DNA of 64,000 nucleotides. It comes from an uncultured Candidatus Saccharibacteria bacterium. GTDB lineage: Bacteria > Patescibacteriota > UBA1384 > CAILIB01. Positions 1,370-9,544 of this stretch are shown piece after piece (position 1 is the first letter of the stretch; each line of letters starts with the position of its first letter). The stretch lies in assembly GCA_964593885.1 (NCBI GenBank), contig CAZQKK010000002.1, forward strand, positions 11,997-75,996. The letters run 5' to 3'. Under the pieces are notes generated by a model. That model saw only the letters and a program-made list of their open reading frames with translations. It was not told the DNA's origin and searched no databases. A program made the translations under genes and the position numbers.

Positions 1370-3013
1370 CTAGGCTTTGCCTACCTGGATAGTTCGACCG
1401 CCCATGCCCTCGGCAAAGTAGCTGTCGTGGGTAACGTAGATGATGGCGCCGGTGAATGCCTGGAGGGCTTCCTCAAGCTCTTCAATGGAGGGGAGATCGA
1501 GGTGGTTTGATGGCTCGTCCAAGATGAGGAGGTTGGGGTTGTTGGCAAGCATCTTTATCAGCTGCAGCCGTGCTTTCTGGCCACCTGAAAGCTGCCTTAC
1601 CGGAAGCTCTAGGTCATTCACGGGGTTGAAGAGGTAGGTTGCCAAAATGGAGCGAACCTCATCAATGGGGATGCTGATGCCGGCCTCGTGGTAGCACTGG
1701 CTCACCGCATCTCCCAGCTTCATGTCTAGGTAGGTACTACTTATCTCCTGCTCGTAGAAGCCAATCCTCAGCTTTGGGCTGGCTTTTATCTCGCCCTTCT
1801 TGAGGGTTTCAGGCTTCTTGCCAGCGGCAGCCGCCATGATGGTGCTAATGAGGGTAGACTTTCCGGCACCATTCCTGCCCCTAAACTGTAGCCTTTCGCC
1901 ATGCTTGATGGTGAAGTTGATCCGCTCTACCAGGTGGTGGGTGTAGCCCACGGCCACATCCTCAAGTTCCAAGAGCTGGAAGACGTGCGAGTCTGGCTTG
2001 GCCACCCGCACGGTGATGCCGCGCGCTTTGTACTTGTCATAGGATTCGGTTACCGTATCTGACAAACTCTCAACGGTGTCCTTATCAATCCAGAATGATG
2101 GCTTGGTGAGCGAGTCTTTCAGAGCGTCATGCTCTCCCTTCAGGCGTTCGTAGAGAATTTTGGGGCGATTATCGCTGGCGCCTCCCATCCGAGCCTTAGC
2201 CGTATTCATCTGGGTCTTCAGCACCTTCAGGCGCTTGAGGGTAGATTCGTACTGGCTAATCTGAGTTACGGTACTCGTACCGTTCTGCTTGATGTAGGAA
2301 TCGTAGTTTCCCGAGTACATGAAGAGCTGCTTGTCTCGCAGTTCCAGGACGCTGTCTACCTCACGCAGGACATCTCTGTCGTGGCTGATGATGAGGGCGG
2401 CGGTGTTGAGCTTCTTGAGCCACGAGAGGAACTGCGCCTTGCCGTGGTAGTCAAGGTGGTTGGTAGGCTCGTCAAGGAGGAGGAGGTCTGCCTGAGAGAA
2501 GCTAATCTTTACTAGCTCAACAAAGCGCTTCTGGCCACCGGAGAGGCTTCCCATGGGGCGATAGGCGGCGTCCAAGTCAATCTCAAATCCTTCAAGCATC
2601 TGGACGATTTCTTCCTCTACGGTGTAGTAGTTCCGGTCTGTGAAGGTTTGGAGCGCCTCGGTGAAGGTGTGGATTTTATCGAGGTCATCTCCCATCTGAT
2701 CCGGGTAGGTGTCCAGGACGTGCTTGAGGGTGTAGTAGTCGGGGATGTAGTCCAGGATGTAGTTGACGGGGGTGGTGGTGTCTACGTCGTGGTGCTCCTG
2801 GGCGGTGGCCACAATCCTCAGGCTCTTGGGGGTATCGATGGTGCCTACGTAGTCTGTATCGTCTCCCGTGAGGAGGTGGAAGAGGGTAGACTTGCCGGCG
2901 CCGTTCCGGCCGATGAGGGCAGTTTTCCGGTTTTCCTGCAGCATGAAGCTAGCTTCCTTGAGGAGAAGCTTTGAGCCCATGTACTTTTCGGAGATGGTGG
3001 CGGAGAGGAGCAT
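1370..3013 (-). CDS. ABC-F family ATPase (two ABC domains, no TM domain)
   Basis: Two Walker A motifs (GRNGAGKST twice), two LSGGQK signature motifs and two hhhhDEPTNHLD Walker B motifs. Length 547 aa. Confidence 0.9.
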   Translation of the reverse strand: MLLSATISEKYMGSKLLLKEASFMLQENRKTALIGRNGAGKSTLFHLLTGDDTDYVGTIDTPKSLRIVATAQEHHDVDTTTPVNYILDYIPDYYTLKHVLDTYPDQMGDDLDKIHTFTEALQTFTDRNYYTVEEEIVQMLEGFEIDLDAAYRPMGSLSGGQKRFVELVKISFSQADLLLLDEPTNHLDYHGKAQFLSWLKKLNTAALIISHDRDVLREVDSVLELRDKQLFMYSGNYDSYIKQNGTSTVTQISQYESTLKRLKVLKTQMNTAKARMGGASDNRPKILYERLKGEHDALKDSLTKPSFWIDKDTVESLSDTVTESYDKYKARGITVRVAKPDSHVFQLLELEDVAVGYTHHLVERINFTIKHGERLQFRGRNGAGKSTLISTIMAAAAGKKPETLKKGEIKASPKLRIGFYEQEISSTYLDMKLGDAVSQCYHEAGISIPIDEVRSILATYLFNPVNDLELPVRQLSGGQKARLQLIKMLANNPNLLILDEPSNHLDLPSIEELEEALQAFTGAIIYVTHDSYFAEGMGGRTIQVGKA

Positions 3014-3100
3014 TTGGCTACTATACCAGATTAGAAAGGGGTTGTCCTGTGTTGTTGGTGAAGTTTTTGCTAATCTATTCTTAACCGAACAAATTCTTAC

Positions 3101-3448
3101 ATGAAATCACTTCAAGATCTTCAGGATATGGTCGTTAAGCTTAGGGATGAGCGAGACTGGAAGCAATTCCATAACCCAAAGGACTTAGCCCTTACACTTA
3201 CCCTTGAAGCCACAGAAGTTTTGGAGCATTTTCAGTGGAAAACAAACGAAGAGTCTTTTGATCACATAAAAAAGAACAAACAAAAAGTTGCACACGAACT
3301 TGCTGACGTACTATATTCTGTTTTGCTCATGGCAAATGATTTTGATATTGATCTTGCAGAATCTTTCCTAGAGAAAATTGAAGAAATTTCAAAAAAGTAC
3401 CCTGTAGAGAAGTCAAGAGGAAATCATAAAAAATATACTGAGCTATGA
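3101..3448 (+). CDS. MazG-like nucleotide pyrophosphohydrolase (small all-alpha NTP-PPase)
   Basis: 115 aa with the EATEVLEHF and HELADVLY E-x-x-E/D helical motifs typical of the MazG/HisE superfamily. AT-rich relative to flanks. Its stop overlaps the next start (ATGA). Confidence 0.75.
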   Translation: MKSLQDLQDMVVKLRDERDWKQFHNPKDLALTLTLEATEVLEHFQWKTNEESFDHIKKNKQKVAHELADVLYSVLLMANDFDIDLAESFLEKIEEISKKYPVEKSRGNHKKYTEL

Positions 3449-5367
3449 TTGTTTATCAAGCTACAAAGCAATCTTTCCATCACGATATTCTCACTCACAG
3501 AATTGAGAAGATTGTTGCTAATGAGTTACTAAAAAAGACTGGAAAGCATGTGGGAGATGCAGAGGTGAGGTCATGGAAAGAATCGCTTGGCTACATGAGC
3601 AATGTGCTTTTGGATAACGATATTCCAAACGATGTTGGTATTGCCATTGAGTACCACATACCTCAAACCACCAAACGGATCGACTTTATTCTCACTGGTC
3701 AGAATGAGCATAATATTGACCATGCAATTCTTGTTGAGTTAAAGCAATGGTCGTCGGCAAAGCTGAGCGACCGAGATGGTGTGGTGTATACGTATGTTGG
3801 CGGAGGAGAGCGTGATATGAGCCACCCCTCATATCAGGCATGGTCATATGCTGCACTCCTTGAAGGATTTAATGAAACGGTTTACCAGGAAAACGTCCAG
3901 CTTAAGCCTTGTGCGTATTTGCACAACTATGAAGAGGATGAGGTTATCCGTAGTGATTTCTATCAAGAGTACCTAGATAAGGCACCGGCGTTTCTTGCTG
4001 GTGATGACGAGACAGAGAAGTTGAGAGATTTTATAAAAAGATACGTAAAGCGCGGGGATGTCTCGAATATTATGTATCGCATTGAGTGCGGTAGGATCCG
4101 CCCTTCAAAAGCTCTTGTGGATAGCCTTGTATCAATGCTTGATGGAAATGATGAGTTTGTCCTTGTTGATGATCAAAAGACAGTATTTGAGGAAGCAAGA
4201 TCACTAGTGCTTAATGCTTCAGATGATAATAAAAAAGTTCTCATTGTAGAGGGAGGGCCAGGAACAGGAAAAACACTTGTTGCTGTGAACCTTTTGGTAA
4301 AGGCCACAGCTGAAAACCTAGTTGCGCTTTATGTTACAAAAAACGCTGCGCCAAGAGCGGTCTATGAAAGCTTACTCACAAAGAGTCCCAGAAAAAGTGT
4401 ATACACATCTCTTTTCTCTGGCTCAGGTGCCTTTACCCAATCAAAGGAAAATGAGTTTGATGTCTTGATTGTTGATGAGGCGCACAGACTCAATGAAAAG
4501 TCTGGAATGTATAAGAACCTAGGTGAAAACCAGGTGAAAGAAATTATTACTGCTGCAAAATGTTCAATCTTCTTTATTGATGAAGATCAGCGTGTGACGT
4601 GGGGAGATATTGGAACAAAAGAAGAAATCATCAAATGGGCAAGGCAATGTGGAGCTGAGGTTGTCGAGAAAAACCTTTCATCACAGTTTAGGTGTAATGG
4701 TTCTGATGGTTACCTTGCATGGCTTGATGATGTTCTCCAAGTTAGAGAAACGGCAAACTACACTCTTGAAGAAGGTCAGTATGATTTTCAAGTTTTTTCA
4801 GACCCAAACGAACTTCGTAGAGCGATTCAACTTAATAATGTTGATAGAAATAAATCTCGTTTAGTTGCTGGCTACTGTTGGGAATGGGCAACTAAGTCTG
4901 GAAAAGCTGAATATGATGTCGTGTTGCCTGAGTATGATTTCAAAATGAAATGGAACCTTGCCAGTGACGGTAGTCTCTGGATAGTAGGAAAGAATTCAGT
5001 TAATGAAGTTGGCTGCATTCATACCTGCCAAGGTCTTGAGTTAGATTATGTAGGGGTGATTATTGGCGATGACTTTGTTGTGAGAGATGGTGAGGTTGTC
5101 ACAAATCCATCGGCTAGAGCACGTAGCGATAAATCACTTTCTGGATATGTGAAGGCCTCAAAGGATAGCCCAGAAGAATCATCTCAAAAAGCTGATCTTA
5201 TTATTAAGAATACCTACCGCACGCTCATGACGCGTGGGATGAAGGGTTGCTACGTTTACTGCACTGATAAAGAAACTGAAGATTACTTTAGAGAACGTCT
5301 CACACAGGTAGCTCATCTTTCTGGAAGCGAGATTGAAGGATTTGAAGATGAATTGGAGATTGCATAA
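3445..5367 (+). CDS. DUF2075 / Schlafen-group-3-like protein: N-terminal PD-(D/E)xK-like nuclease motif fused to SF1-type helicase ATPase
   Basis: N-terminus has IEYHIP...KRIDFIL...ILVELKQW (an E...D...ELK restriction-endonuclease-like signature). Walker A is GGPGTGKT. Walker B/DEAH-like is LIVDEAHRL. Motif VI-like is CIHTCQGLELDYVGVII. 640 aa, low GC. Confidence 0.8.
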   Translation: MIVYQATKQSFHHDILTHRIEKIVANELLKKTGKHVGDAEVRSWKESLGYMSNVLLDNDIPNDVGIAIEYHIPQTTKRIDFILTGQNEHNIDHAILVELKQWSSAKLSDRDGVVYTYVGGGERDMSHPSYQAWSYAALLEGFNETVYQENVQLKPCAYLHNYEEDEVIRSDFYQEYLDKAPAFLAGDDETEKLRDFIKRYVKRGDVSNIMYRIECGRIRPSKALVDSLVSMLDGNDEFVLVDDQKTVFEEARSLVLNASDDNKKVLIVEGGPGTGKTLVAVNLLVKATAENLVALYVTKNAAPRAVYESLLTKSPRKSVYTSLFSGSGAFTQSKENEFDVLIVDEAHRLNEKSGMYKNLGENQVKEIITAAKCSIFFIDEDQRVTWGDIGTKEEIIKWARQCGAEVVEKNLSSQFRCNGSDGYLAWLDDVLQVRETANYTLEEGQYDFQVFSDPNELRRAIQLNNVDRNKSRLVAGYCWEWATKSGKAEYDVVLPEYDFKMKWNLASDGSLWIVGKNSVNEVGCIHTCQGLELDYVGVIIGDDFVVRDGEVVTNPSARARSDKSLSGYVKASKDSPEESSQKADLIIKNTYRTLMTRGMKGCYVYCTDKETEDYFRERLTQVAHLSGSEIEGFEDELEIA

Positions 5368-5369
5368 CA

Positions 5370-5723
5370 ATGAATGCGAAACCATTACTCATAGCTGGTA
5401 GCGTCTCCCTTCTATCTGTAGCAGCTTTTGCCGCAGGTATGGAATCTCCAGAGGTTGCAGAAAGGTTGGGTAGTTCTCCGCAGATTACTTCAACAATTCC
5501 AGCTACTAACACACCAAAAGCGACTTCTGCTCCAACGCCTAAACCCACTGAGAGTAGCAAAGCTACTACATCAAATTGTGATTCGAACTACAGTCCCTGT
5601 ATTCCTAAGGTGAGTTATGACCTTGATTGTGGGGATATTGGAAAATTTGTGTACGTTATTGGTGTTGATGTACATGGATTTGACAGAGATGGGGATGGAG
5701 AAGGATGTGAGAGCTACAAATGA
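5370..5723 (+). CDS. secreted Excalibur (extracellular calcium-binding) domain protein
   Basis: N-terminal signal peptide, a Thr/Pro/Ser-rich linker, and a C-terminal DCGDIG...DRDGDGEGCE motif matching the Excalibur DxDxDGxxCE signature. Confidence 0.75.
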   Translation: MNAKPLLIAGSVSLLSVAAFAAGMESPEVAERLGSSPQITSTIPATNTPKATSAPTPKPTESSKATTSNCDSNYSPCIPKVSYDLDCGDIGKFVYVIGVDVHGFDRDGDGEGCESYK

Positions 5724-6049
5724 AATCCTTAAAATTCCAACCTCATCTAGCGCAGATGATTCGAGAGGGCAGAAAGACAACGACGTGGAGGCTCTTTGAT
5801 GACAAGGATCTCCAAGTTGGTGATGAGATTGAGTTGGTAGAAAAGGGTCAGAATGCGCCCTTCGCCCACACAACAATTACAAAGATGGTCTATAAGACAC
5901 TGGGCTCATTGCAAGATGAGGATTGGGTTGGGCATGAGAAATTTGCCTCAGAAGAAGAAATGTACGCAACATACCAAAATTACTACGGACCAAGTGTTGG
6001 TCCGGATATTGAAGTAAAGATTATCTGGTTTGGAACTATTGATTTGTGA
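5720..6049 (+). CDS. ASCH domain (PUA-like fold) protein
   Basis: 109 aa. The N-terminus KFQPHLAQMIREGRKTTTWRLFDD with a conserved GxKTxExR-type core is typical of ASCH. Start overlaps the previous stop (ATGA). Confidence 0.7.
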   Translation: MKSLKFQPHLAQMIREGRKTTTWRLFDDKDLQVGDEIELVEKGQNAPFAHTTITKMVYKTLGSLQDEDWVGHEKFASEEEMYATYQNYYGPSVGPDIEVKIIWFGTIDL

Positions 6050-6093
6050 GCAAGTCACTCAAGATTTTGCTACACTACCCATAACAACCCGTA

Positions 6094-6206
6094 ACCATCA
6101 AGAGAGGTAGTCAGGGCTCCAGAGCCCGCCAAAAGCTACCCAGCAACTGAGAACCGTCGTGTTCCGCAGTGCTAGAATCTGGTCCCGCCATGGGAAGATG
6201 TGGCCT
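6094..6206 (+). promoter_or_regulatory. SAM-I (S-box) riboswitch aptamer in the metK leader
   Basis: Contains AUCAAGAGAGG, then GGGCUCCAGAGCCCGCCAAAAGCUACCCAGCAACU, then CAGUGCUAGAAUCUGG. These closely match the conserved S-box core AUCAAGAGAGG...GGGACUGGCCCGAUGAAGCC...CAGCAACC...GGUGCUAAAUCCAGC. A GC-rich segment plus a T6 tract follows at 6255-6268, immediately before the metK ATG. Confidence 0.7.
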
Positions 6207-7457: not shown

Positions 7458-7904
7458 GTGACCAAAGTTGAGGTGGCTAGCATGACAAGTTTAGTAGAAC
7501 CAATTGACGTCTCGTTGGTAAAAGACGACTTCCCCAACCTGAAGCTCGTAGAGCTTCCTGACTTTCCTGGGATCGTCTTCGTGAACTATGGTGAGGTTGT
7601 CACTTCGAAAGAGGTTACCAATACCATGATCACGATGAAGCTCCACTCTCCCGATTTGCCTGAGATGCTCATGCAGCAGGCCTTCGAGAGGAAGCCGCCG
7701 CTCCATGAACTGCCCGACTTCAACAGTGCTCCGGTTGTCCTCATTGCAAACCGAGTGCCAGGTCAGTATTGGTCGGTGAATGAGGAGTGGCTCAACATTG
7801 CTACTTGCGCTGAAGAGTTCCGCATTCACCTTTGGCTCGCTGACTCCGGCGATGAGTATGAGGGGAACTACTGGTTCCTGGCAGTGCCAAGTACAACTAG
7901 CTAG
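7458..7904 (+). CDS. hypothetical protein
   Basis: 148-aa ORF downstream of a strong promoter. No recognisable domain. An alternative start MTSLVEP lies at 7482. Confidence 0.5.
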   Translation: MTKVEVASMTSLVEPIDVSLVKDDFPNLKLVELPDFPGIVFVNYGEVVTSKEVTNTMITMKLHSPDLPEMLMQQAFERKPPLHELPDFNSAPVVLIANRVPGQYWSVNEEWLNIATCAEEFRIHLWLADSGDEYEGNYWFLAVPSTTS

Positions 7905-8075
7905 CTCCTCTCAGCAAATGTTTCGGCTCTCACCTTGTGTGAGGGCCATTTTTGTAGCTGTAATGGTTGACAAAAATGGATTTTTTCCCTACAGTCGCGG
8001 TACCTTTCGCCCCGCTCAATTGCCACTCGCACCGCCAACATTGCGGGGAGCGAAAGGTACTCGGTCATTAACATC

Positions 8076-8942
8076 ATGCCTAGTGAAACTATCGGAACAC
8101 ACAAGAAAACGTTTGCGGCGCATACCGCTCGTTTGCTTGCAAGTGAACCCTTCTCCACCGGAGTTGGGTCCCTGCTCATAGTACTTCCTTCCATCATCTT
8201 ACTAAGCCAGCGCTGTGCGCAGTGCCGAACAGCAAGTGTGGTGCAGGGACTGGTACTTCCTCTGGTGGGAATTGCATTTGGCTTGCTCATGCTTGCCAGT
8301 GCAGTTGCGCCAAAAGTGAGGTTGGTAATCTCGGTTGCAAATGCTTGTCTCGTACTAGCGGGCCTCATAAGCCCACTTGTGCTTGGCACCTTGCTCCTTG
8401 GGTACCACCCGTGCACGTACTGTATCATCGTCTGGTTTGGGGTTATCGCGCTTTTTGCGGGGATGCCTCTGGACGAAAGTCGTGCTAGCAAGCTGAGGTT
8501 GGTTTGGACCTGCTGCGCGGTTCTCACGCTCATTGTGTGGGGAGTGCCAGCTACTAACCTTGAGGCTAAGCGCCTCCTGATCGCGGCGGGACTCAGTACC
8601 ACCGCCACAGAGAACGGACCAACGGTTGGAAGTGTCGCTCCAATGGAGCCATCACTTCCTAGTACAGTAACGGTTGTCTTCTGGACGCAGTGCCCATGTC
8701 CACTGCCCCAGCTGCAAGAAGCGCTCAGAGCGCTCAACCAAAAAGGTGTCGTGCCGGTAATCATTACTACCGTGCGCGTTCCCGAAATGAAGGCTTGGGC
8801 TCCCCGGAGCTCGGTACTCATAGTTGATGACAGCGTCTTCCAGCAATGGGGGGTGGATCGTCACCAGACACACGTGGTGGTTAGGATTGAGGGTGGCATT
8901 GTCGTCACCAGCAACCCTGCCAGCCAGGTCAAAAGTAAATGA
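8076..8942 (+). CDS. VKOR/DsbB-like polytopic membrane thiol oxidoreductase with C-terminal thioredoxin-like soluble domain
   Basis: Four to five TM helices. A loop Cys pair CAQC sits after TM1 and a CTYC sits at the start of a TM helix, matching the VKOR active-site arrangement. The C-terminal domain carries a FWTQCPCP Cys motif. The exact start is uncertain. Confidence 0.55.
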   Translation: MPSETIGTHKKTFAAHTARLLASEPFSTGVGSLLIVLPSIILLSQRCAQCRTASVVQGLVLPLVGIAFGLLMLASAVAPKVRLVISVANACLVLAGLISPLVLGTLLLGYHPCTYCIIVWFGVIALFAGMPLDESRASKLRLVWTCCAVLTLIVWGVPATNLEAKRLLIAAGLSTTATENGPTVGSVAPMEPSLPSTVTVVFWTQCPCPLPQLQEALRALNQKGVVPVIITTVRVPEMKAWAPRSSVLIVDDSVFQQWGVDRHQTHVVVRIEGGIVVTSNPASQVKSK

Positions 8943-9544
8943 AACGGTTACCATACCTGAGAACTAGGTTGGGATTCACGATGGTTGAGGTCATCGTGGT
9001 AATTCTGATCATCGCCGTTCTCGCTGCTATCATCTTTCCTGTTGTCAGTTCCACTAGGGAACAGGCACGGAAAACAGACACCTCAGCAAGGCTCCACCAG
9101 GTTGCACAGGCCATTTCACTCTACCAAGATGAAAATGACCAGAGCTTGCCACCTCGGTTGAGTAGCCTGTCCTTGAAGCCTGAAATGCTTCGTTGCTCCA
9201 AGAGTGGGTATACGTTCTACTACCCGTTGAACTACTCCTTCCTCCAGCGCTACGGCAATCGCAAGGAAATTGCTCCCGAGTTTGAGCCAAGTCAGAACGC
9301 TGCTGTTAAGGCGATGTTCTGGCACACCTTCAACTGTGGGATGGCAAACAAGAACTGTGATGTCAAAACGCACGTGGTGGATGGGGTAAATTACACGTAC
9401 ACCATTCCACGCATGACGGAAGATACACCAAGTACCTACAAGGTGCTCGGCGTGAGGCTGGATGGGAGCGTTGGCGAATTCCCGGTCCTCGAAGACTGGG
9501 AGAAAAACCACCTTGAAGAGGGTGGCGTAGGGAAAGACAAATGA
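8939..9544 (+). CDS. type IV pilin-like protein (prepilin N-terminal methylation/cleavage motif)
   Basis: A basic leader is followed by G|FTMVEVIVVILIIAVLAAIIFPV: a class III signal peptide with Glu at +5 and a hydrophobic helix. The globular domain has 4 Cys. Start overlaps the previous stop. Confidence 0.8.
   Translation: MKRLPYLRTRLGFTMVEVIVVILIIAVLAAIIFPVVSSTREQARKTDTSARLHQVAQAISLYQDENDQSLPPRLSSLSLKPEMLRCSKSGYTFYYPLNYSFLQRYGNRKEIAPEFEPSQNAAVKAMFWHTFNCGMANKNCDVKTHVVDGVNYTYTIPRMTEDTPSTYKVLGVRLDGSVGEFPVLEDWEKNHLEEGGVGKDK

Follow-up and report, generated by a model that had tools for sequence, protein, structure and literature searches.

A conserved MazG-like partner gene for a predicted PD-(D/E)xK nuclease–SF1B helicase: a candidate two-gene defence module in Candidatus Saccharibacteria and beyond

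We examined a 64 000 nt stretch of DNA from an uncultured Candidatus Saccharibacteria bacterium (positions 11 997 to 75 996, forward strand, of contig CAZQKK010000002.1, assembly GCA_964593885.1; hereafter the window) and, in particular, two adjacent genes at window positions 3101–5367. The first encodes a MazG-like nucleoside triphosphate (NTP) pyrophosphohydrolase and the second a single polypeptide in which a predicted PD-(D/E)xK nuclease domain precedes a superfamily 1B (SF1B) helicase domain. We conclude, with moderate confidence, that the two form a mobile module that most likely serves in defence against phages or other invading DNA. A preliminary description of the sequence had dealt with the second gene and likened its product to one-protein immunity enzymes. 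That single-polypeptide layout has already been published as anti-phage immunity, as Nhi (Bari et al., bioRxiv 10.1101/776245) and as Nhi-like (Millman et al., bioRxiv 10.1101/2022.05.11.491447), and its recovery here is confirmatory. The novelty lies in the upstream MazG-like gene, which went unmentioned in that description and is a conserved partner. The features of the two genes are as follows (window positions; aa, amino acids).

3101–3448, + strand: gene for a MazG-like (DCTPP1/RS21-C6-type, all-alpha) NTP pyrophosphohydrolase, 115 aa (PF12643)
3445–5367, + strand: nuclease-helicase gene, 640 aa; N-terminal PD-(D/E)xK nuclease (predicted), then DUF2075/SLFN-g3 SF1B helicase
3445–4149, + strand: N-terminal nuclease domain, aa 1–235, predicted PD-(D/E)xK core
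3649–3744, + strand: predicted catalytic residues E69 (3649–3651), D80 (3682–3684) and E98-L-K100 (3736–3744)
3835–3849, + strand: Q131-x3-Y135 (in HPSYQAWSYA), a QxxxY motif on the helix following the ExK strand
4231–5268, + strand: DUF2075/SLFN-g3 SF1B helicase-ATPase domain, aa 263–608 (PF09848, motifs and Foldseek)
4252–4275, + strand: Walker A GGPGTGKT, aa 270–277, including K276
4474–4485, + strand: DEAH, aa 344–347, within LIVDEAHRL (aa 341–349)
5020–5052, + strand: motif V, IHTCQGLE (TCQGLELDYV is aa 527–536)
5215–5238, + strand: motif VI, YRTLMTRG, aa 591–598

Eighty genomic loci were examined, all carrying full-length relatives of the nuclease-helicase at 55–64 % identity and coming from Patescibacteria, Bacteroidota, Beta- and Gammaproteobacteria, Nitrospira, Desulfatiglandales and others. 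A homolog of the MazG-like gene was present in 78 of the 80; in 71 it directly precedes the nuclease-helicase gene on the same strand, the two being −1 to +37 bp apart. Intact pairs were also seen on a haloarchaeal plasmid, on a Priestia plasmid though the helicase there is only 39 % identical, and in the 22 kb Microcystis phage Mwe-JY31 (L085:4657–6863), the identities in the phage being 48 % for the MazG-like protein and 57 % for the nuclease-helicase. All genes in the record of this phage are annotated as hypothetical. A third conserved gene was sought around the 80 loci and none was found, the largest flanking cluster being present in nine of them. The nuclease-helicase might nevertheless be a stand-alone immunity enzyme, an Nhi proper beside which the MazG-like gene is an incidental neighbour, given that Nhi and Nhi-like have the same domain architecture and work as single genes. 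However, a partner that is retained across phyla and in archaea and a phage, with its catalytic residues conserved, while no other neighbour recurs in more than nine of the 80 loci, makes this highly improbable. The resemblance to one-protein immunity enzymes stands, as distant homology, but the unit is probably not a one-protein one.

On a Streptomyces plasmid (L086:3698–6776), a DUF2075 relative with 29 % identity has a DUF3883 gene upstream and not a MazG-like gene, indicating that the MazG pairing marks a subclade. Linkage of DUF2075, DUF3883 and DUF3427 has been noted for modification-dependent restriction enzymes (PMC6765204), and the Streptomyces arrangement fits this. On the Priestia aryabhattai plasmid (L084:5548–8866), a DUF3578 gene runs into the start of the MazG-like gene, so that three genes form an operon, DUF3578-MazG-DUF2075. 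DUF3578 is a McrB-N-like reader of modified cytosine, and this operon is flanked by a Type I restriction-modification system, an ABC-three-component system and MutT. In full-text open-access papers and bioRxiv, we found no description of a MazG/DUF2075 pairing, or of Nhi or Schlafen with MazG. Relatives occur in at least 586 species genomes, from the Candidate Phyla Radiation (CPR)/Patescibacteria, Bacteroidota, Pseudomonadota, archaea and a cyanophage, and the N-terminal domain alone falls into 1782 clusters at 50 % identity. These sequences point to a candidate system of two genes, 'MazG plus Nhi-type nuclease-helicase', with a wide distribution in which Patescibacteria are notable.

The MazG-like protein matches PF12643 at 62.7 bits (cutoff 27), and its nearest solved relatives are DCTPP1/RS21-C6 (deoxycytidine triphosphate (dCTP) pyrophosphatase 1; E=5e-18) and the archaeal pyrophosphatase 4qgp. 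In 77 MazG-like sequences, the metal-binding residues E36, E39, E42, E66 and D69 and the stretch RDWxQFH are 99–100 % conserved, which argues for an enzyme rather than a degenerate scaffold. The partner shares with DCTPP1/RS21-C6 both the ERDWxQFH stretch and the metal ligands ExxE...ExxD, and it is predicted to be an active DCTPP1-like NTP pyrophosphohydrolase. Unlike DCTPP1/RS21-C6, the enzyme in the window is part of a mobile module, in which its gene is an obligate companion of the nuclease-helicase gene. It also matches the phage pyrophosphatase family phrog_3301.

The TGA stop codon of the MazG-like gene overlaps the ATG of the nuclease-helicase gene (ATGA), and the two genes are probably translationally coupled. 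This tight coupling, the overlap, the order of small gene then large gene and the mobility of the module are all features that would be expected of a toxin-antitoxin-like addiction or abortive infection pair, in which the nuclease-helicase is a toxin restrained by the MazG-like protein, for instance because the latter hydrolyses an activating nucleotide, and the pair persists selfishly. Escherichia coli MazG is tied to MazEF via nucleotide hydrolysis, and a growth arrest has been seen with one Nhi homolog (see below). Against this, the fully conserved active site of the MazG-like protein is as compatible with an enzyme of the nucleotide pool as with a regulator, and the proposal overlaps with defence rather than excluding it. 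As an explanation in its own right, we consider it quite unlikely.

The nuclease-helicase gene begins with an ATG, a start supported by the invariance of M1, Y4, K8 and F11 at the N-terminus of the homologs. The nuclease and helicase motifs that had been quoted from this open reading frame (3445–5367, + strand) are all present where they were said to be, those of the nuclease being IEYHIP (aa 68–73), RIDFIL (aa 78–83) and LVELKQW (aa 96–102). The bare E..D..ExK spacing was found in 89 % of composition-matched shuffles and hence proves nothing by itself; together with the hydrophobic context of the beta-strands it occurred in 0.08 % of them. The assignment of a PD-(D/E)xK N-terminus therefore rests on conservation, on the predicted fold and on homology to Nhi, and by these three it was borne out. 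E69, D80, E98, K100, Q101 and W102 are invariant in 25 relatives at 60–65 % identity. Among 60 homologs ranging down to 30 % identity, D80 and Y135 were kept in all, E69, E98 and K100 in 59 each, and Q131 in 58. We take the QxxxY formed by Q131 and Y135 to be comparable to the motif of RecB-family and HsdR nucleases.

The AlphaFold2 model of aa 1–262 was very confident (predicted local distance difference test (pLDDT) 94.8, predicted template modelling score (pTM) 0.91) and contains an alpha-beta-beta-beta-alpha-beta core fold, made up of alpha(38–54), beta(65–71), beta(78–86), beta(92–100), alpha(128–142) and beta(152–159). E69, D80 (strand 78–86) and E98-x-K100 (at the end of strand 92–100) lie on three successive strands after a helix, and a further helix and a fourth strand follow, which is the order of a PD-(D/E)xK core. 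A Foldseek search of this N-terminal model against the PDB returned no significant match. There was no Pfam match above threshold in the first ~260 aa of the protein. The sole Pfam signal of the isolated domain was a sub-threshold one, to NERD (PF08378; 15.9 bits, below the cutoff of 22.1; E=0.02; aa 69–143), that falls exactly over the catalytic core, and the domain is at most NERD-like. We predict that it is a metal-dependent PD-(D/E)xK nuclease using E69, D80, E98, K100, Q131 and Y135.

The remainder of the protein is a helicase, as had been proposed from its Walker A and DEAH motifs. Residues 263–608 match PF09848 (formerly DUF2075, now SLFN-g3_helicase, 'Schlafen group 3, DNA/RNA helicase domain') at E=7e-107, with a score of 358 bits (cutoff 24) and coverage of the full model (1–354). 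Motifs I, II, V and VI of superfamily 1 (SF1) are intact, and no variation was seen in GKT, DEAH, QGxE and TR among 25 close homologs aligned. One label has to be changed, since TCQGLELDYV, previously described as motif-VI-like, belongs to motif V (QGxE), which we take from the SF1 consensus to be IHTCQGLE, motif VI presumably being YRTLMTRG. With the full-length AlphaFold2 model, which is of moderate quality (pLDDT 75, pTM 0.54), the top Foldseek matches were SLFN11 (first, E=1.8e-11), RecD2, IGHMBP2, Dna2, SLFN14, Dda and Upf1, and the structural neighbours of the helicase part are SF1B helicases.

Two proteins of this layout have been studied experimentally. Nhi (SERP2475) of Staphylococcus epidermidis has nuclease activity (exonuclease/nickase) in its first 230 aa and a bidirectional helicase, its nuclease and helicase mutants lose defence, phage escape maps to a phage SSB (a protein that binds single-stranded DNA), and one S. 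aureus Nhi homolog halted cell growth on expression (Bari et al., bioRxiv 10.1101/776245). Nhi-like of Bacillus cereus FSL H8-0482 is an experimentally verified defence gene that was named for having the domain organisation of Nhi without sequence identity to it (Millman et al., bioRxiv 10.1101/2022.05.11.491447). Both sequences were taken from the supplements of these papers, Nhi-like being compared over the first 399 of its 611 aa. Using hhalign, the protein in the window aligned collinearly with Nhi (aa 20–597 with 16–483; 93.8 % probability, E=1.8e-7), with E69/D80/E98/K100 paired with Nhi E63/D72/E85/K87 and the helicase motifs also aligned. The match to Nhi-like had 88.5 % probability (E=2.7e-6; 23 % identity over 270 columns), again with the triad aligned, and the N-terminal motifs FEYEI, RRPDILL, IVIECK and QTSLY of Nhi-like are recognisably similar. 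BLASTP aligned only 100 aa with Nhi, corresponding to the linker and Walker A, the PADLOC Nhi hidden Markov model matched aa 236–418 over just 153 of its 470 positions (E=3.7e-14), and PADLOC PDC-S41 matched the C-terminal half only.

Nhi and Nhi-like share with the protein in the window the N-terminal PD-(D/E)xK nuclease and, in one polypeptide, the DUF2075 SF1 helicase. Nhi also spreads horizontally and is found near defence genes. However, identity to Nhi is only ~17 %, insertions in both domains make the protein in the window ~130 aa longer, and the C-terminal glyoxalase-like domain of Nhi is missing from it. Moreover, Nhi acts alone and Nhi-like, cloned as one gene, works by itself, whereas the family in the window is paired with the MazG-like gene. 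H. jeotgali B3 and Polynucleobacter sp. VK13 carry this family and are in the dataset of Millman et al., and neither is in the Nhi-like Table S17. On these alignments, the protein is best placed as a distant superfamily relative of Nhi and Nhi-like that is a member of neither defined family. What is new is, hence, a large and very widespread clade outside both, tied to a DCTPP1-like nucleotide pyrophosphohydrolase that is predicted to be active. Coupling of a nuclease-helicase to an enzyme of the nucleotide pool would join DNA degradation with nucleotide depletion or sanitation in a compact module.

The suggested link to eukaryotic Schlafen proteins holds for the helicase domain, which is in PF09848 and has SLFN11 as its top Foldseek match, but not for the nuclease. 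The Schlafen AlbA_2 RNase domain (PF04326) had no match in the nuclease-helicase, and the N-terminal fold is closer to PD-(D/E)xK nucleases than to SLFN11/12. The group III Schlafens (SLFN11, SLFN5 and SLFN14), whose helicase/ATPase is in the same Pfam family, are immunity proteins that combine a nuclease with a helicase and respond to single-stranded DNA (ssDNA), and in this they resemble the predicted enzyme. The clade is common in Patescibacteria and gives a bacterial counterpart with which the ssDNA-sensing helicase domain of human SLFN11 can be compared. Nucleases of the Dna2 and AddAB/RecB type are alike in another way, as Dna2 has a PD-(D/E)xK nuclease N-terminal to an SF1B helicase and the RecB-family nucleases have a QxxxY after the ExK. 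Nevertheless, there is no detectable sequence homology to them outside the helicase motifs and no iron-sulfur cluster motif in the protein in the window, and their place is in core replication and repair, whereas the context of this family is mobile and patchy. Two further candidates were rejected as relatives: DARNA, an SSB/ssDNA-activated RNase, is an unrelated HEPN protein, and Tiamat/TmtA on the Polynucleobacter contig of locus L010 is an unrelated Hsp90/DUF3684/DUF3883 protein.

The module has spread horizontally. Relatives of the nuclease-helicase are on 110 plasmid records, and the GC content of the module tracks that of the host (r=0.84) with a median 5 points under the flanks, being >3 points lower in 43 of 69 loci. 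The neighbours recur but vary and include HNH-HIT fusions, HNH_2, RhuM/Fic, SoFic, Bro-N, C5 cytosine methylases, ExoX-like exonucleases, Type I and Type IV restriction genes, a second DUF2075 paralog and a Polbeta-NTase/HEPN pair. This set has the look of defence islands and mobile DNA.

Phages themselves might be the beneficiaries. Phage T4 uses a dCTPase together with nucleases to destroy cytosine-containing host DNA, and the pair could likewise serve a phage or other mobile element in host takeover or in its own replication, chromosomal copies being remnants of such elements. The complete pair in Microcystis phage Mwe-JY31, the matches of the MazG-like protein and of an ASCH-domain neighbour in the window to PHROG families, and Bro-N genes next to the module in five loci would all agree with this. 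However, relatives of the nuclease-helicase were found in only four of 50 697 phage records, and a scan of IMG/VR, which was sensitive to close relatives only, found none. In addition, the DUF2075 protein has no real PHROG family, and the majority of copies lie on chromosomes without phage genes beside them. We consider a phage or element function very unlikely.

A C-terminal S24 domain (LexA/UmuD-like Peptidase_S24) is fused to seven of the 120 closest relatives listed (~6 %), namely P0002, P0006, P0016, P0038, P0054, P0105 and P0107 (one such locus is L088:2008–4371). The self-cleavage site (LKAAAG, SVPCG) and the GxSMxP serine motif are recognisable in the four of these that were aligned (P0002, P0016, P0038 and P0107), and in P0016, the one checked, the MazG-like gene is kept upstream. 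This suggests that the S24-fused variants may be controlled or processed by RecA-ssDNA filaments, a lead that echoes the autoinhibition of full-length Nhi.

Several observations weigh against a role in defence. In the window, the module adjoins housekeeping genes (ABC-F and metK) and not a defence island, and the evidence from defence genes in the neighbourhood is descriptive. The PADLOC Nhi and AbiO models match only aa 235–419 of the nuclease-helicase. Co-divergence of the two proteins is weak (Spearman 0.27), a value that is uninformative because the identity range is narrow. Conservation is unusually high for a defence gene, at 55–65 % identity across phyla and 47–49 % to archaea, and DCTPP1-type enzymes are classically house-cleaning pyrophosphatases. 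These last two points would also suit an accessory module for DNA repair and sanitation of the nucleotide pool that serves the host genome, with the MazG-like enzyme clearing damaged or non-canonical deoxynucleoside triphosphates and the nuclease-helicase processing damaged DNA or stalled forks in the manner of Dna2/AddAB. Dna2 is, moreover, among the top structural matches, MutT, NUDIX and ExoX genes neighbour some loci, and the LexA-like S24 domain of some relatives is a sensor of DNA damage. However, a patchy distribution, carriage on plasmids and in a phage, location in a low-GC islet, and flanks that vary by genome and are rich in restriction-modification, HNH, Fic and SoFic genes are not what a host repair function would predict, and the closest characterised homologs are defence proteins. 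Hence, a repair module appears to us unlikely.

We prefer defence because of the homology to validated defence proteins, the conserved MazG-like partner, the mobility and context of the module, and the precedent for MazG, which has been put forward elsewhere as a predicted, unvalidated defence domain and, in PUA-HAD systems, as a rare predicted effector that targets NTPs. We infer a defensive function, a DNA substrate for the nuclease-helicase, and both a role and a substrate for the partner. By analogy with Nhi, the helicase would engage single-stranded or forked intermediates of the invader's replication and translocate or unwind with ATP while the tethered nuclease nicks or degrades the DNA, stopping the accumulation of phage DNA. 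The MazG-like enzyme, made from the same transcript, would act on the nucleotide pool. From the chemistry of its family, we favour hydrolysis of dCTP or of non-canonical or modified deoxynucleoside triphosphates (dNTPs), by which replication of the invader would be starved or modified, nuclease-resistant DNA would not be made.

DCTPP1 is known to prefer 5-modified dCTP, and a more elaborate version of the defence reading can be built on the second of these outcomes. The partner would destroy the modified or non-canonical dNTPs of a phage (e.g. 5-substituted dCTPs), leaving it with ordinary DNA that the nuclease-helicase degrades, and in some relatives the S24 domain would add activation by RecA/ssDNA. 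The module is now and then linked to McrB-N/DUF3578, DUF3427, Type IV restriction genes or C5 methylases, which gives hints of this, none of them decisive. We regard such a two-layer defence as a long shot; if true, it would be a way for the host to counter DNA hypermodification.

The surroundings of the module in the window comprise the following further features.

3000–6100 (no strand): low-GC islet, ~33–47 % against ~54 % around it, with four closely packed genes in the same orientation, bounded by an ABC-F gene and metK
5370–5723, + strand: gene for a small secreted protein with an Excalibur-like Ca-binding tail (Pfam)
5720–6049, + strand: ASCH-domain gene (PUA-like fold; Pfam), with weak similarity to N4-acetylcytidine amidohydrolase and a match to phrog_32075

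No convincing direct or inverted repeats, promoters or terminators were seen at the islet boundaries, and no integrase or tRNA was found flanking it. There is no obvious Shine-Dalgarno sequence before the MazG-like start (positions 3060–3110) and the islet is AT-rich, which may hint at a source lineage that makes no use of such sequences, e.g. the Bacteroidota, which hold many of the closest relatives. The small secreted protein gene and the ASCH gene overlap by 4 nt, and neither had a tblastn match in any of the 80 loci; they are probably incidental cargo. The nearest named MetK, that of Ca. Saccharimonadales, is 66 % identical to the one in the window, and a Patescibacteria/Saccharimonadales-like host is therefore probable.

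In other genomes, the module is followed immediately downstream by an HNH_2 gene in ~9 of the 80 loci, an HNH-HIT fusion recurs in another nine, and two different DUF2075 paralogs are found in tandem at L081:7001–10987 (a Hymenobacter plasmid) and L088:2008–6372. These may be further modular combinations. Beyond the islet in the window, downstream of metK (8939–9544, 7901–8942), there are a protein with a prepilin-type N-terminal methylation motif and long overlapping open reading frames on both strands.

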